Assembly (NCBI GenBank): GCA_010093995.1
Contig: ML992528.1
Coordinates: 1 to 64,000, forward strand
DNA length: 64,000 bases
Direction: 5' to 3'
Origin: Elsinoe ampelina
Taxonomy: Eukaryota
The position numbers and the translations under genes were made by a program. Shown here one piece after another: positions 18,120 to 37,901 of this stretch (position 1 is its first letter; every line of letters begins with the position of its first letter). Under the pieces are notes generated by a model. It was not told the DNA's origin and made no database searches. It saw only the letters and a program-made list of their open reading frames with translations.

Positions 18120-19385
18120 CTACGCCTTTCCTTCCTCCCTCATCCTCCCTAATTTCCCCACCACCCTCTCCCTCCCCCACCCATCCACCAGTGCCCTCCT
18201 TAGCAACCCCTGCTCACTCTCCGGCGCCATGCCCCCATGCGCAGGCGGCCTGCGATCCAGGTTCGTCGGAAACGGATACCCCTCCGCCACAGCCTGCACA
18301 AACGCTTCAACCTCCTGACTCATCCCCTCGGCATCAAACTTCTCCTTGAGTCCGTCCCACGTCTTCTCCACCAGTGGCAAAGTATCGATGCTCTCCATCG
18401 GCTTTCCGAAGGCGCTGCTCACTTGCACCAGATTGGCGGAACGATCGAATTCTGCCGTTTTGTTCTCACCCGCAGCGTGATAGAGAGCGGGGTTGAAGAA
18501 CAGCCCGTAGCCTTTCTGCAGGGGGAGAGCGATGTGGTGCTCTAGGAAGAATGACTGGAAGTCTGCGTCGCGGTAGGACATGAAGCCTGACTCGAGGCGT
18601 TGGCTGAAGGGTAGGAGACGAGTGGGGCCGCTGAGCAAGGGCATGTCGGTGTGGGCGATGGCGCCTTGTAGCGTGAGGAGTTGGGAGGCGGTGTGCATCG
18701 CTCGAGGCCACCGGGAGACTTGCTCGGCGGTCTGGAAGCCAAGGTGGTAATCGCGGTGGCAGGTCTGGGCGGTGCCGCCGGGGTGGACGATGTTGAGCTG
18801 GGTGGTGATCCGGTACGCTGGGCCAAGGTAGGCTTCGCAGATGAGTGCGAGGAAGGGGTTGGAGTAGTAGGGGATGAAGGTCGAAGGGGAGGTGAGGCAG
18901 TGTTTGGAGAAGGAGTTCCAGATGCGGGAATTGGTGTTGTTGGCAAAGAAGTGGTCGCCTTTGGAGGTAGTGCGTTCAGAGTCGATGACGTTGGAAAACG
19001 TAGCATTGGTCTCGTCGAGCAGGTCGTGATTGGTATACATGATTTTAAGGACAAGAACGCCAGGCCCATGAAGAAGCATATTGTAGAGTTCCGTCATAAG
19101 AGCCTCTCGTCGTGATGAATCCACTATATTGAGCTTCGAGCAGTCGTACATCGGGACATTCTTCACCACTGATGCTGCTAGTGGGCAATCCGTTGTAGTC
19201 AGAGTTCGTGAAGCGATTGCCTTCAATTCGTTCGGCCTCCGTTTCTGTGACAGGTCGAACAATCGGGTCGTGGATGGCGAAGGGACTGGTCCTGAGCCAT
19301 GATCCTGTCCAAGAAACAACATGATGATCCCTGCTCCAATGCTCGCGGCTACTACTAAGTCTGTAGCACCGATGTGCGGAGCCAT
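18120..19385 (-). CDS. Phytanoyl-CoA dioxygenase (PhyH) family Fe(II)/2-oxoglutarate dioxygenase
   Basis: Uninterrupted 421-aa ORF with HRDYHLGF (HxD), GPTRLLPFSQ, LFFNPALYHAAGEN (distal His) and AEGYPFPTNLD. Confidence 0.85.
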   Translation of the reverse strand: MAPHIGATDLVVAASIGAGIIMLFLGQDHGSGPVPSPSTTRLFDLSQKRRPNELKAIASRTLTTTDCPLAASVVKNVPMYDCSKLNIVDSSRREALMTELYNMLLHGPGVLVLKIMYTNHDLLDETNATFSNVIDSERTTSKGDHFFANNTNSRIWNSFSKHCLTSPSTFIPYYSNPFLALICEAYLGPAYRITTQLNIVHPGGTAQTCHRDYHLGFQTAEQVSRWPRAMHTASQLLTLQGAIAHTDMPLLSGPTRLLPFSQRLESGFMSYRDADFQSFFLEHHIALPLQKGYGLFFNPALYHAAGENKTAEFDRSANLVQVSSAFGKPMESIDTLPLVEKTWDGLKEKFDAEGMSQEVEAFVQAVAEGYPFPTNLDRRPPAHGGMAPESEQGLLRRALVDGWGRERVVGKLGRMREEGKA

Positions 19386-19737
19386 TTCTTTATAGTTACC
19401 TGCTTCTGCAGAAGGCAGGACCTTGAATGTCTTGCGGAGACTAGACAGATGGGGATCAGATCGATTTGGGCCACAGTCAAAGCCGACAATATGGATGTAG
19501 GGCGGGGCATAATTCCATGAGGAGCATCATTGTGGACGGCTCACTTGTTATTGACGTCGGGATCGGGTCGATTGCCTCTTTAGTGTCGGGTCGGCGTCTA
19601 AGGGGCGGAACCCCTCCCAAGCAGAACAGAGCCAACCCGGAGTGAACATGACGATGCCACTTTTCAGGCAGCGAACATCAACCATTGATGGAGATCCGGT
19701 CGGCAAAAGCGTAGGCCCAGGGTCGAGTATCCCAGCC

Positions 19738-19742
19738 AAAAA
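19738..19742 (-). terminator. Pol III-type oligo(T) terminator downstream of the split tRNA-Leu
   Basis: TTTTT on the minus strand, 12 nt after the discriminator A at 19755. Confidence 0.6.
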
Positions 19743-19754
19743 TTAAGTCGACAT

Positions 19755-20032
19755 TGACAAGGAGGGGCTGCAATGAATAAGAAGAAACCCATCAAAGCAT
19801 CTAGAAGTGCTCACATTCGAACCCTAGTTCGAAATTAGAACCTGTCACGGGGTTTTATGGGACGGTGTTTGATCATACCCTGCGGGCAACGCCCATGAGA
19901 AGCAGCTCATAACGAGCACCTGATAGTGGTCTATCAAGAAGCAAATGCTTGAGTCACACGCCATAACCTGAAGGGTTAGCGCGGTGTTGGCAATTGCGGG
20001 GTTTAATAGGCATACCACTCGGCCACCTTGCC
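19755..20032 (-). tRNA. tRNA-Leu(CAA) split into 5 exons by three GT-AG introns and one canonical tRNA intron
   Basis: Exons 20032-20016, 19967-19948, 19901-19879, 19823-19815 and 19767-19755 join to GGCAAGGTGGCCGAGTGGTTATGGCGTGTGACTCAAGTTCTCATGGGCGTTGCCCGCAGGGGTTCGAATCCCCTCCTTGTCA (82 nt). It folds with acceptor GGCAAGG/CCTTGTC plus A73, D stem GCCG/TGGC, anticodon CAA (19951-19949), variable arm GGGC/GCCC and T arm AGGGG-TTCGAAT-CCCCT. Confidence 0.88.
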
Positions 20033-20080
20033 GCGTAAATCGAGCTCGAAATGAGCACGAATTCCAAAATTGGGTGGGGT

Positions 20081-20098
20081 AGGAAATATATATTTCCT
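20081..20098. promoter_or_regulatory. Palindromic TATA element upstream of the split tRNA
   Basis: Perfect 18-bp palindrome AGGAAATATATATTTCCT. The TATATA core at 20087-20092 lies 55-60 nt upstream of the mature tRNA 5' end. Confidence 0.5.
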
Positions 20099-20672
20099 TC
20101 CAAAATAAAGCAAATGGGGCGAGCAATTAGAACGCCACTCGCATAGCGGATGAAGCAACTAACGATGTTGTCGAGTCCGCGAGAACGGATTGGATCCGAA
20201 TAGCGAAAGAATAATGAAGAAGCAATCACTCATGAGGATGATGCAAGGCTCATAGTGTTCACTCAGGATCGATTGTGGCAAAGCGAACAAACATACTCAT
20301 GTGTCTCACAGCGTGCTTTTCGTGGTCTCGGGCATGATATTACGATCCTAGGCGGAAGAGGAATCTTGGACATGCCGACGGTCGGAGTGGTTCTCTTTTT
20401 GCCAGTAGTGATCTGTCGAGATGTTAGGCTAGTGTAGATGGCGGCTGCTAGGAAGCCTTGATAGGCACGTCGACAACGACATTAAGATGGGCCTCAATAG
20501 CTAGGTTGCAAAATGCTACGAAACGATACCTAGCATAAGAAGTTTGTCGTTCTGGCATCACTTGTGTTGAAGCAAAAGAAATCTTGATATCGGATCTAAC
20601 AGGTAGCATAGTTGCAACGGGCTGCTTCCATCATTCCTGACGATAAGTTTCTGACAACCCGATACTTGACCA

Positions 20673-22075
20673 ATGCTCTCCTTTCCCGAACGTAATGACC
20701 TTCAATTATCAGACATCATCTTCTCTGCCGCTAGCCAGCAAATCTCCCGTTTCGAGCGCGAGGCTACCAGGTCTCGACTCTCAACAAGAAGCCGATTACA
20801 CTCTATAGCTCACGACGCAGAGTTTGTCCAGCAAGTCGCAGAACTTTTCTCCCTGCCATTGATAGCAAACGAAAGATGTGGCAGCTGGTATGTTGCACCT
20901 CCCGCTAAGAAGGGCAGCGTATACTTCAAGTCTACAGATGGTCATGCTGGCCAGTGGTCGCTAAGTCTGCGAAGACTCAATCTCAACTTGTTGGAGCTGA
21001 TTGCTCTTCAACGAGGGTATGTTCACATGTTGGATTCGTTTAGATCAACGCTGATCACAACAGATGCATAATCGTTGACTCTACTCGACGTGGCAAAAGC
21101 ATGCCAGATGCTCTATCAAAGACGGTACCTATCTGGATTGCTGTCTGGAATCGCCTTCTATTCCCTGCCAACCAAGAAGCTTGCACCTTGCGAACACCAT
21201 CAGACGTTGTCGGCGCATCCGAGCATTCTCAGATCGAGCAGCGACTGGACAAGCTTGTCGACGATCTGAAGTCGTTAGATCTGGACCTGGAAGCAATACG
21301 GAAGTCCTTGCAGAAGCCGCTGCGGCCGACATGGGTCACCCAGTCCTCAGGAGTGTCGGGGATGGATCTTGACGAAAGCTTCTACCATGTCATCCTATGC
21401 ACAGCATCAGGCCGAGACGCAGGTCAGGACGTCTCCGGCTTCAACTACGTCCAAGGCGCTGCAGACGACGCAGAAGCATGGGCACTCGGTCTAACGCCGC
21501 AGCTATTCTGGGAGCACAAAGACACACTGCTCGAATCGTCCGAGGATGACTTGCCAGCATTGATCACATCTCTCGTATCAGAGGAGGACAACAATGAGTC
21601 TACAGAGGCCCCCATCCTGATCAAGCCCACCCAACTCCTCATCGGCACCACCGCCTCCACCATCCCACAGGACTGCACCCTCATCATCACTTGCTCACCC
21701 ACCCCACCCACCTCCCCTACACCCTCTTCCCCCACGAAAACCCTCCACCTCCCCCTCCCCCCGGGCAAACTCGGCTCCCGCGCCCTCCGGCACCTCCTCC
21801 CCCAACTCCCCCTCTTCCTCAACCCCCACCTCTCCCCCACCGCCAAAACCCTCATCACCTGCCCTTCAGGGAAAGACCACAGCATCGGCGTCGCGCTGTG
21901 CGTCCTCTGCCTCTTCGCCACGACAGACGGGACACTACACAAAGACACGGATAACGCCTCACATATGAACAAAGACTTTATAAAGAGGAGGCTGAGTTGG
22001 ATCATGGCTTCTATTCCCTCTGCGAACCCTTCGAGGGCGACGTTGCAGAGCGTGAATGCTTATCTACTTGGGTAG
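20673..22075 (+). CDS. RIT1: Initiator tRNA A64 2'-O-ribosylphosphate transferase
   Basis: Motifs ANERCGSWY, YFKSTDGH.GQW.LSLRRLN, DSTRRGKSMPDALSKTVPIW, YVQGAADD.EAW, KLGSRALR and NPSRATLQSVN. One intron at ~21018-21064. Confidence 0.93.
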
Positions 22076-36290: not shown

Positions 36291-37901
36291 TCAAACACCA
36301 AAGTACCTCAACACATGCCCCGCCTCACCACACCCCAATCCCTGATCCCAACATTGCACACAAACATCCCAATTCCCCTTCTCACAAATCGCACAATTAT
36401 GCCTCTCCCCCGGAATAAACAAGTGACACACATCGCATTTATACCGCCACTTGACCGGAGACTCCGGTGATATAGGCATGAGCTTGCCCAGCTCACGGCC
36501 GCAGCGTGGGATGGCTTCGTTGGCGAGGTAGTCTTTCCGGGAGCGGCTGATGGGGCCGGATTTGCCGTCGTATTCGTCGAGGTAGCGCGTGAGGCGTTTG
36601 CGTTCGCGGAAGATGGCGGAGGCGGAGGCGGGGGTGGGGGCTGAGGGGGGTCGTGAGGGGGGGTTGGGGTGTTCTGCTGGTGGGGGTAGGTAGGGGTGCT
36701 GGTGGGGTGCTGACGGATCCCGAGGGGAGGGGATGGTGTGCTGGTGGTGTATGGATGGATTCTTGGGAGTTGGGTTGGTGTCCTGGTCGATGTTCCGGTA
36801 GGGGTCCTGGTGGTGTGCTGGTGGGTTTGGAGGCGAGGGAGGTCTGACCTCTATTACCTGTGGTTCCAGCCCGTCGAGATCGAAGAGGCTGTCGAGCTCC
36901 GTGGCAATATCGATTGTGGTAGGGTCTTTGCTGGCGTGGTCTCTGCTCTTTTTCATCGCCTCCATCTCCAGCTCCATCTTGACCTTCTCCTCAAACCGCT
37001 CAACCTCCCCCTTGTGCATCTTCTGCACCTCGAGTTCCAGTCTGGCCTTTTGTATCTTCTCCATCTCGAGTTGCATCCTGGCCTTCTCCCTCTCCAACCG
37101 CTCCTTCTCCGCCTTGATCACATCCTTCTTGCTTCGTCCTTCGACAATGATTACACCAGCAGGTTTCGCCGAAGCCACGTCATGTAACCGCGCCCCTTTC
37201 TCTGGCTCCGTCCTCCAGAACGGCGTCTCCCCTCTGACAAGATGGCGAACATAAGCCTTAATATCCTCCTCGAACCTCGCCGCTTGCTCTCCCGTGATTC
37301 CTTCGCTGGCCAGCTCTCTCCCCATCTTCCCCCAAACATCCATCCCCGCCACTGGCTCTGCTGCCGCTCCCACACCTCCACCCCCTCCCTGCGCCCTCGG
37401 CCCCTGGCCCCCATGCACGTCCCCACCCGCCCCTACCCCTCCTATCCCCACCGCCCTATTCGCCAACAAAAACTCCACCCTCCCAAGCGCCCCATTACTC
37501 AACCCGGTAAGAAACATGCCCAAACTAGCCACATGCAACGCCACCCTCTCCCTCAGCCCCTGCTTACTCTCCTTCGCCAACCTCACCCTCTCCAACCACC
37601 CCTTCTTCTCCTCCCCTCCTAGCGCATCATACTTGTACACCAGCCTGCGCAGACTCTCCATCCCATTGCGGCAGTTCTCGAGTAAGACGCGGAGGTGGTC
37701 CTGCCGGGAACGGGGCAGTTTGTGGTAGAGTGAAGTGGGGGATTGGGCTTCGTCGGCGAGGTGGCGCAGGGTGAGGGTGAGGCTGTGGCAGTCTAGGGCT
37801 AGGGAGCGGAGGTCCGAGGGGCCGGATTTGAGCGCCGAGATGGCTTGGTGGGTTAGGGTGAGGGTGGTGAGGATGTCGCCTATTGAGATGCCGAAGGACA
37901 T
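36291..37901 (-). CDS. Protein with a fungal STAND-associated (HeLo-like/SesA-type) N-terminal domain and C-terminal ZZ-type zinc finger
   Basis: MSFGISIGDI.. N-terminus with L.NC...L..L..KY helical pattern, Gly-rich linker, coiled coil, Pro-rich region, and CDVC..HNCAIC..WDVCVQC..C..H. Confidence 0.65.
   Translation of the reverse strand: MSFGISIGDILTTLTLTHQAISALKSGPSDLRSLALDCHSLTLTLRHLADEAQSPTSLYHKLPRSRQDHLRVLLENCRNGMESLRRLVYKYDALGGEEKKGWLERVRLAKESKQGLRERVALHVASLGMFLTGLSNGALGRVEFLLANRAVGIGGVGAGGDVHGGQGPRAQGGGGGVGAAAEPVAGMDVWGKMGRELASEGITGEQAARFEEDIKAYVRHLVRGETPFWRTEPEKGARLHDVASAKPAGVIIVEGRSKKDVIKAEKERLEREKARMQLEMEKIQKARLELEVQKMHKGEVERFEEKVKMELEMEAMKKSRDHASKDPTTIDIATELDSLFDLDGLEPQVIEVRPPSPPNPPAHHQDPYRNIDQDTNPTPKNPSIHHQHTIPSPRDPSAPHQHPYLPPPAEHPNPPSRPPSAPTPASASAIFRERKRLTRYLDEYDGKSGPISRSRKDYLANEAIPRCGRELGKLMPISPESPVKWRYKCDVCHLFIPGERHNCAICEKGNWDVCVQCWDQGLGCGEAGHVLRYFGV

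Follow-up and report, generated by a model that had tools for sequence, protein, structure and literature searches.

Can a nuclear transfer RNA (tRNA) gene depend for its maturation on the spliceosome as well as on the tRNA splicing endonuclease? The question is raised by a locus on the minus strand of contig ML992528.1 of Elsinoe ampelina (GenBank assembly GCA_010093995.1), of which positions 1 to 64,000 of the forward strand were analysed (the window). At 19755–20032 an earlier note, made from the sequence alone, had described a tRNA-Leu(CAA) gene broken by four inserts, three of them with the GT-AG ends of spliceosomal introns and one of the normal tRNA type. Our results make it likely that the locus is a genuine nuclear tRNA-Leu(CAA) gene with a 308-nucleotide (nt) precursor that is spliced four times, three times by the spliceosome and once by endonuclease and ligase.

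Extraction of the minus strand by coordinates gave the four inserts (Table 1) with exactly the positions and signals that the earlier note had assigned to them. The five joined exons are called by ARAGORN as tRNA-Leu(caa) of 82 bases, with all arms, a long variable arm and discriminator A, which confirms the type II cloverleaf claimed after removal of the inserts. The anticodon stem contains one U-U mismatch, the underlying sequence of which is kept in 68/69 homologues. Uninterrupted tRNA-Leu(CAA) genes from metagenome contigs align collinearly with the joined exons (76/80 positions identical), and comparison with them shows that both loops, D and T, regain their exact lengths. In its cloverleaf and its collinearity the locus has the features of a nuclear type II tRNA-Leu(CAA) gene. 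The prediction that standard finders would overlook it also held: ARAGORN finds no tRNA gene in the whole window and makes no call on a 478-nt uncut genomic stretch with the intron option on or off, while Rfam gives no match at the gathering score in the window and none at E ≤ 10 in 19600–20200. Such a failure of tRNA models to recognize the uncut DNA is expected if the inserts are real.

The possibility that a tRNA call could arise by chance from the removal of segments was addressed with strict splice signals, taking every GT[AG]NG..YAG segment of 40–75 nt and passing all combinations of one to three removals to ARAGORN. In the real window 2/1672 combinations yield a tRNA; the two fall at the locus described here, and one is identical to the solution of the earlier note; the reversed-sequence control yields none in 6296. 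With bare GT..AG ends, five of 300000 sampled triples from the reversed sequence give a call, all at one place. A tRNA-Thr call at 36702–36922 on the plus strand, obtained in G-rich low-complexity DNA after three arbitrary GT..AG removals, was judged to be chance. Because removal of bare GT..AG segments followed by ARAGORN is permissive, weight is placed on the strict signals, on RNA and on homologues; the ARAGORN calls would not suffice by themselves, and collinearity with uninterrupted genes is the stronger argument against chance.

Inserts 1, 3 and 4 follow a common pattern of GTRNG 5' ends, YTRAY branch motifs, YAG 3' ends and lengths of 47–55 nt. The branch-motif A lies 8 nt from the end of insert 1 (CTAAC) and 11 nt from that of insert 3 (CTAAT); insert 4 has the looser motif TTGAT, a YTRAY match, about 24 nt from its end. 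Their proposed likeness to the messenger RNA (mRNA) introns of the region is upheld by the control intron of the neighbouring Rit1-family gene, which is 47 nt long, reads GTATGT..CTGAT..CAG and is verified in RNA-derived contigs. Both the signals and the size of the three inserts are those predicted for U2-type GT-AG introns, and none of the three contains a run of four or more T (T4+). No match longer than 8 nt was found among the inserts, and their best matches elsewhere in the 64-kb window, the only DNA searched for this purpose, are 10–18 nt long; this lack of similarity speaks against an introner-like or otherwise repeated intron family.

Insert 2 is of a different kind. Its place is directly behind G37, and a CTTGA within it could pair with TCAAG of the anticodon loop; in its 37/38 position and its pairing stretch it fits an endonuclease-type intron. 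When it is left in place, ARAGORN prefers a 48-nt intron (19900–19947) and an 80-nt tRNA. Among the homologues, TTCTCA directly follows the canonical insert in 68/69 distinct loci, preceded by a variable base, and a G lies 3 nt before TTCTCA in 66/68; conservation of these two features favours the 46-nt boundary.

RNA evidence was drawn from assembled contigs of four runs (X1, X2, X3 and X6) placed on the window. None of the runs is catalogued as RNA, but all can be taken as RNA-derived because contigs in all four join 21015 to 21063 across the Rit1 intron. One contig of 1564 nt (X1 record 1) covers 19000–19767 and continues with 10 further letters identical to 19815–19824. Exon 5 is here joined to exon 4, with insert 4 (19768–19814) excised to the nucleotide, and the predicted junction between these exons has thus been found. 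This excision, together with the presence of such inserts in 25 metagenome genes described below, supports the earlier view that the GT-AG inserts are spliceosomal. The tenth loose letter is compatible with insert 3 being either spliced or retained and is uninformative on that insert; the loose end stops where the two forms diverge, which fits a fork in the assembly graph and by itself shows nothing. No junctions for inserts 1, 2 or 3 are present in the contigs. With exons of this size, a contig lacking all four inserts could not have been placed. The unspliced precursor is covered over 19738–20045 by X6 record 14, over 19739–19891 and 19863–20044 by X3 records 10 and 11, and over 19790–20024 by X2 record 7. 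In X3 and X6, which come from two studies, the contigs have one boundary ∼13 nt before the first base of the tRNA and the other at the final T of a run of five T (T5) downstream of the gene, and contigs of the adjacent PhyH-family gene begin at 19725–19727 in X2 and X6. These ends match a transcription unit of ∼308 nt of the type made by RNA polymerase III (Pol III), and are a weak hint of one. The stretches without coverage (20053–20620 in X2, X3 and X6; 19810–20052 in X1) were not counted as evidence.

Homologues were sought by scanning metagenome contigs with the 20-nt exon 2, so that the survey covers Leu(CAA) genes. The scan returned 92 loci with an identical 20-mer, each of which is a complete or partial tRNA-Leu(CAA) gene. 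A script removed candidate introns and accepted ARAGORN calls for Leu(CAA) of 79–87 nt with a canonical intron of 15–60 nt; it left 20 loci (one with an implausible solution only, 19 unresolved), which were then read by eye. Ordinary genes with the canonical intron only account for 44 loci (38 by script, 6 by eye), genes with one GT-AG insert for 34 (32 and 2) and genes with two for 3 (2 and 1), and the remaining 11 are cut at an end, degenerate or unresolved. GT-AG inserts are therefore present in at least 37 of the 92 loci (34 by script, 3 by eye), and the canonical insert is found in all 92 wherever sequence is available. Among the loci classed by eye, ARAGORN gave no correct call for a single gene family (L021, L072, L074, L063, L089 and L023) and mislabelled L001, L042 and L070. 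The 11 unclassified loci comprise four that are cut at an end (L022, L088, L065 and L066), four without a T arm (L050, L061, L064 and L077), the degenerate L056, L060 with mismatched acceptor strands, and L009, in which exon 1 was not found.

The 72 loci resolved by the script reduce to 55 distinct genes, 30 of them ordinary and 25 with GT-AG inserts, the latter carrying 26 introns. These introns are 50–57 nt long and begin with GTAAGA (10), GTAAGT (7) or close variants; all 26 contain CTRAY (CTAAC, CTAAT, CTGAC or CTGAT) with the branch A 6–13 nt from the end, and they finish in CAG (11), TAG (8) or AAG (7). The D arm or loop holds 17 of them and the T arm seven, with one after base 8 (8/9) and one in the variable region; the intron of L069, alone among the 26, occupies the position of insert 1. 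The window locus, with five exons including one of 9 nt, is the most fragmented example in the sample. None of the 92 loci shares the flanks of the window locus, the matches consisting of exons and, in four loci, part of the canonical insert. No gene of another isotype with a GT-AG insert occurs in the 1.2 kb of sequence flanking these loci: the single tRNA-Met call there overlaps the Leu gene, and two calls of tRNA-Ala(cgc), one at L063 and one at L089, represent Leu genes under a wrong label. The host genes are most likely fungal.

Two groups of loci in the survey have an unusual arrangement. L050, L061, L064 and L077 have near-identical flanks and consist of the 5' two-thirds of a Leu(CAA) gene, without a T arm, followed by a T5 run; their canonical insert resembles that of the window locus (89% over 48–54 nt), and they may represent a truncated gene or a tRNA-derived repeat. 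L038 and L056 lie ∼38 kb apart on one 935-kb contig, one copy being intact and the other having a degenerate T arm, and each is preceded by a partial duplicate of the 5' part that ends in GGTGGCCGAG.

The expectation that exons would be conserved and introns divergent in relatives was borne out within a metagenome family of 11 distinct genes that share one mature sequence. When compared pairwise by part, the exons have a mean identity of 98.4% (96–100%, the differences lying at the ends called by ARAGORN), the GT-AG introns 71% (64–82%), the canonical introns 87% (74–100%) and the flanks ∼62%. A presence/absence pair for gain or loss is provided by L057 and L016/L087, in which the mature tRNA and the 37-nt canonical intron are identical, a 52-nt GT-AG intron in the D loop being present in L016 and L087 and absent from L057. 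The D-loop introns of eight loci (L005, L006, L026, L039, L058, L081, L083 and L085), which belong to the family with GCATTCG in the acceptor strand, share a CCAAT-containing stretch ∼20–28 nt from the 5' end and are otherwise ∼71% alike; this stretch could reflect shared descent or a functional element.

Over the 25 interrupted genes there are 14 different acceptor 5' strands, with 173/175 acceptor pairs, 125/125 T-stem pairs and A73 in 25/25, counts that for the stems are partly circular because ARAGORN picked the solutions. T4+ runs that begin no more than 25 nt past the 3' end follow 25/25 interrupted and 27/30 ordinary genes. Inside the GT-AG introns, including the three of the window locus, T4+ occurs in 1/29 against 5.3 expected by shuffling (P 0.013), T3 not being depleted. 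The constraint and the terminator pattern together point to working genes that would be read by Pol III. A TATA-like motif lies within 60 nt upstream of 13/25 genes with GT-AG inserts and of 6/30 ordinary genes, an excess that may reflect a difference of lineage or a promoter that tolerates split internal boxes.

Table 1. Parts of the tRNA-Leu(CAA) locus and adjacent features, in positions of the window
Feature	Position	Strand	Signals or basis
tRNA-Leu(CAA) gene, five exons and four inserts	19755–20032	minus	coordinate extraction
Exon 1, 17 nt: acceptor 5' strand, positions 8–9, D stem, D loop through G18	20016–20032	minus	
Insert 1, 48 nt, GT-AG type, between G18 and G19	19968–20015	minus	GTATGC, CTAAC, CAG
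Exon 2, 20 nt: remaining D arm, anticodon stem 5' strand, anticodon CAA, G37	19948–19967	minus	
Insert 2, 46 nt, canonical tRNA-type intron at 37/38	19902–19947	minus	no GT-AG
Exon 3, 23 nt: anticodon stem 3' strand, long variable arm, three opening T-stem bases	19879–19901	minus	
Insert 3, 55 nt, GT-AG type, T stem at 51/52	19824–19878	minus	GTATGA, CTAAT, TAG
Exon 4, 9-nt micro-exon: two final T-stem bases and T loop (B box core)	19815–19823	minus	
Insert 4, 47 nt, GT-AG type, at 60/61	19768–19814	minus	GTGAGC, TTGAT, CAG
Exon 5, 13 nt: T stem 3' strand, acceptor 3' strand, discriminator A73	19755–19767	minus	
TATA-like run of putative function, ∼55–60 nt upstream of the tRNA 5' end	20086–20093	minus	read from sequence
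T5 run, starting 13 nt past the tRNA 3' end; putative Pol III-type terminator	19738–19742	minus	sequence
Candidate primary transcript, 308 nt	19738–20045	minus	unspliced extent in RNA-derived contigs
PhyH-family dioxygenase gene, downstream neighbour	18123–19385	minus (strand of the tRNA gene)	
Rit1-family gene, divergent upstream neighbour	20670–22075	plus	47-nt GT-AG intron 21016–21062, control mRNA intron

Besides the PhyH and Rit1 genes, a Bre1 gene is also among the neighbours, and these genes, together with the size and signals of the introns, point to a fungus. Between the tRNA locus and the Rit1 gene, X1 alone has a contig of 423 nt (record 2; 20088–20510, depth 19.5), one end of which falls inside the TATA-like run. 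In the leader of the PhyH gene, the A at 19512 is replaced by C in X2 and X6, a change from T to G on the minus strand that creates a GTATGC 5' splice site, and one X2 contig skips 72 nt there (19512–19441, ending in CTAG); the window allele has TT at the 5' site and the X1 contig is unspliced over 19441–19512, a difference between strains.

In the mechanism that we favour, a precursor of ∼308 nt would be made by Pol III, by analogy with the intron-containing U6 gene of fission yeast. The spliceosome would remove insert 1 from between G18 and G19, insert 3 at 51/52 and insert 4 at 60/61, leaving the 9-nt middle exon between the last two, and the tRNA splicing endonuclease and ligase would take out insert 2 at 37/38. 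Ordinary processing of the ends would come last, after which the product would presumably be charged and used.

A number of observations weigh against this mechanism. Only one of the three GT-AG junctions is observed in RNA, it rests on a ten-letter loose end that the alignment tool did not call as a joint, and in X2, X3 and X6 the locus is seen only unspliced. No mature, CCA-tailed or charged tRNA was seen, although contigs of ordinary RNA-seq would not be expected to reveal one. The contig that carries the junction passes the T5 run without a break and reaches the PhyH gene, so that the spliced molecule is a read-through or longer transcript, and it may be a read-through or RNA polymerase II (Pol II) product and not a tRNA precursor. 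By the usual box consensus, inserts 1, 3 and 4 split the internal promoter: inserts 1 and 4 break the A and B boxes, the first G of each insert keeping part of the box. Positions 51/52 and 60/61 do not occur among the 26 metagenome introns and 17/18 occurs once, so that conservation offers no evidence for inserts at these three sites, and the circularity of the stem-pair counts noted above lessens what they contribute. In canonical tRNA introns the partner of base 32 is the intron base at −3, counted from the 3' splice site, a rule that the G in this place in 66/68 homologues fits. Insert 2 lacks this pairing, having T at −3 and G at −2, which is a small mark against the locus. Finally, an uninterrupted copy elsewhere in the genome could supply all tRNA-Leu(CAA).

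Several of these points would be explained if the locus were a disabled copy, that is, a former tRNA-Leu(CAA) gene that has received three recent introns and is transcribed and partly spliced without yielding a working tRNA, other copies being sufficient. The purely unspliced RNA of three runs, the interrupted A and B boxes, the lack in the canonical insert of the −3 G that is present in 66/68 homologues, and the occurrence of introns at 51/52 and 60/61 in this locus alone within the sample would all be in keeping with such decay. Nevertheless, the 82 exon positions give a clean cloverleaf with every conserved base, and three independent insertions that each restore the sequence to the nucleotide, with good signals and no T4+ run, are unlike decay; homologues with such introns keep their exons constrained in many lineages. 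We therefore regard a disabled copy as unlikely. Alternatively, the exons may belong to a Pol II transcript, which could be a non-coding RNA or the 5' leader of the mRNA for PhyH; the inserts would then be ordinary introns of a leader, and the tRNA-like part would serve as a signal (for example, a cut site for RNase P/Z) or be released from this transcript. The only contig with a spliced junction does run through T5 into the coding region of PhyH, the locus is preceded by a TATA-like run, and TATA-like motifs are the more frequent upstream of the GT-AG genes (13/25, against 6/30 for standard genes). Against this stand the X3 and X6 contigs that break at T5 and the PhyH contigs that start at 19725–19727 in X2 and X6, which are a weak hint, the T-runs that follow all 25 homologous genes despite unrelated flanks, and the depletion of T4+ inside the introns, which is relevant only to Pol III. 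The link to PhyH is moreover not conserved, since the homologues have no flanking sequence in common with the window, and a Pol II origin of the exons seems very unlikely.

It has also to be considered that the GT-AG inserts are cut by the tRNA endonuclease through folds resembling a bulge-helix-bulge, their GT and AG ends being coincidental. Ectopic introns of the D and T arms are removed in this way in tRNA genes of a red alga, nucleomorphs and archaea, according to the available part of one review (PMC4090602). However, coincidence would have to account for GT..AG ends in 29/29 inserts (26 from the metagenome and the three studied here), for an exact CTRAY in 26/26 metagenome inserts alongside CTAAC, CTAAT and the looser TTGAT of the window locus, and for a narrow range of lengths (47–57 nt) like that of local mRNA introns. 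The bulge-helix-bulge family was set aside because of the spliceosomal signals in 29/29 inserts, and this explanation is extremely improbable. Splicing by the spliceosome of a gene that also carries an endonuclease-type intron thus remains our preferred reading of the locus.

A full-text search of the literature, which left subscription journals mostly uncovered so that a prior report is possible, returned no account of nuclear tRNA genes that contain spliceosomal introns. The portions available of a 2025 study of tRNA intron loss (PMC12530127), a 2023 review of tRNA processing (PMC10275265), a 2017 article on U3 (PMC5832005) and a 2024 article on intron circles (PMC11146597) contain none, and the word stem ‘spliceosom’ is absent from the corresponding portions of two reviews published in 2014 that deal with tRNA introns and with the diversity of tRNA genes (PMC4090602, PMC4033280). 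The two intron classes are kept apart in the sections available of PMC12530127 and PMC10275265, spliceosomal introns being assigned to mRNA and other Pol II transcripts and tRNA introns to a protein endonuclease and ligase. Spliceosomal introns are listed for U6 (up to four in one fungal gene), U1, U2 and U5 small nuclear RNA (snRNA) and ribosomal RNA (rRNA) genes, and tRNA is not listed, in the excerpted text of PMC5855946.

The closest known case is that of the introns of fungal U6 snRNA. As here, a small non-coding RNA gene of Pol III type has acquired one to several introns with a canonical 5' site, branch and 3' site, which are otherwise unrelated in sequence, differ in position between lineages and are clustered in functionally critical conserved regions. 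Unlike U6, the host is a tRNA, spliceosomal and endonuclease-type introns occur in one gene, one exon measures 9 nt, and the introns are concentrated in the two loops, D and T, that also form the internal promoter boxes; the reverse-splicing argument made for U6, based on closeness to the catalytic centre, is not obviously applicable to a tRNA. Normal GT-AG introns of patchy distribution in structured non-coding RNAs are also found in fungal U3 small nucleolar RNA (PMC5832005, as far as its accessible text goes) and in U1, U2 and U5 snRNA and rRNA (PMC5855946, likewise), tRNA being absent from these lists, whereas the tRNA locus combines two splicing pathways in one molecule. In overall appearance it is similar to the tRNA genes of Archaea, Cyanidioschyzon merolae and nucleomorphs, which have up to three introns, including some in the D and T arms, and which are missed by standard finders; their introns, however, are defined by bulge-helix-bulge folds, in which 3-nt bulges containing the two splice sites flank a helix of 4 bp, and are cut by a protein endonuclease, and those of nucleomorphs are 3–24 nt long without GT-AG or branch signals, as described in part of PMC4090602, in contrast to the spliceosomal signals observed here. 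Insert 2 shares with the canonical 37/38 intron of eukaryotic tRNA-Leu(CAA), which is described as widely conserved across Metazoa (PMC12530127), its position and a stretch complementary to the anticodon loop, and departs from its homologues (G in 66/68) in the T at −3. The locus would work like an intron-containing U6 gene and looks like a multi-intron tRNA gene of archaea or red algae, and it belongs to neither class.

On balance we favour the wider view that spliceosome-dependent tRNAs are widespread but hidden, Leu(CAA) genes having repeatedly gained introns in the D and T loops and being made by Pol III and processed by both the spliceosome and the endonuclease. The many independent insertion sites within a gene of 82 nt would make this a compact system for the study of intron gain. 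A tRNA that needs both machineries would end the separation of intron types and, if true, would add to U6 a second natural example of a probable Pol III transcript that is a substrate of the spliceosome; how A and B boxes that are split can be read by TFIIIC is a further question to which it gives rise. Since ARAGORN and the Rfam tRNA model miss the locus, genes of this kind would be absent from annotations made with comparable tools, and analyses of codon usage and tRNA supply built on such annotations could be wrong. In some species every copy of Leu(CAA) may be interrupted, in which case the decoding of UUG would depend on the spliceosome and tRNA censuses would under-count.

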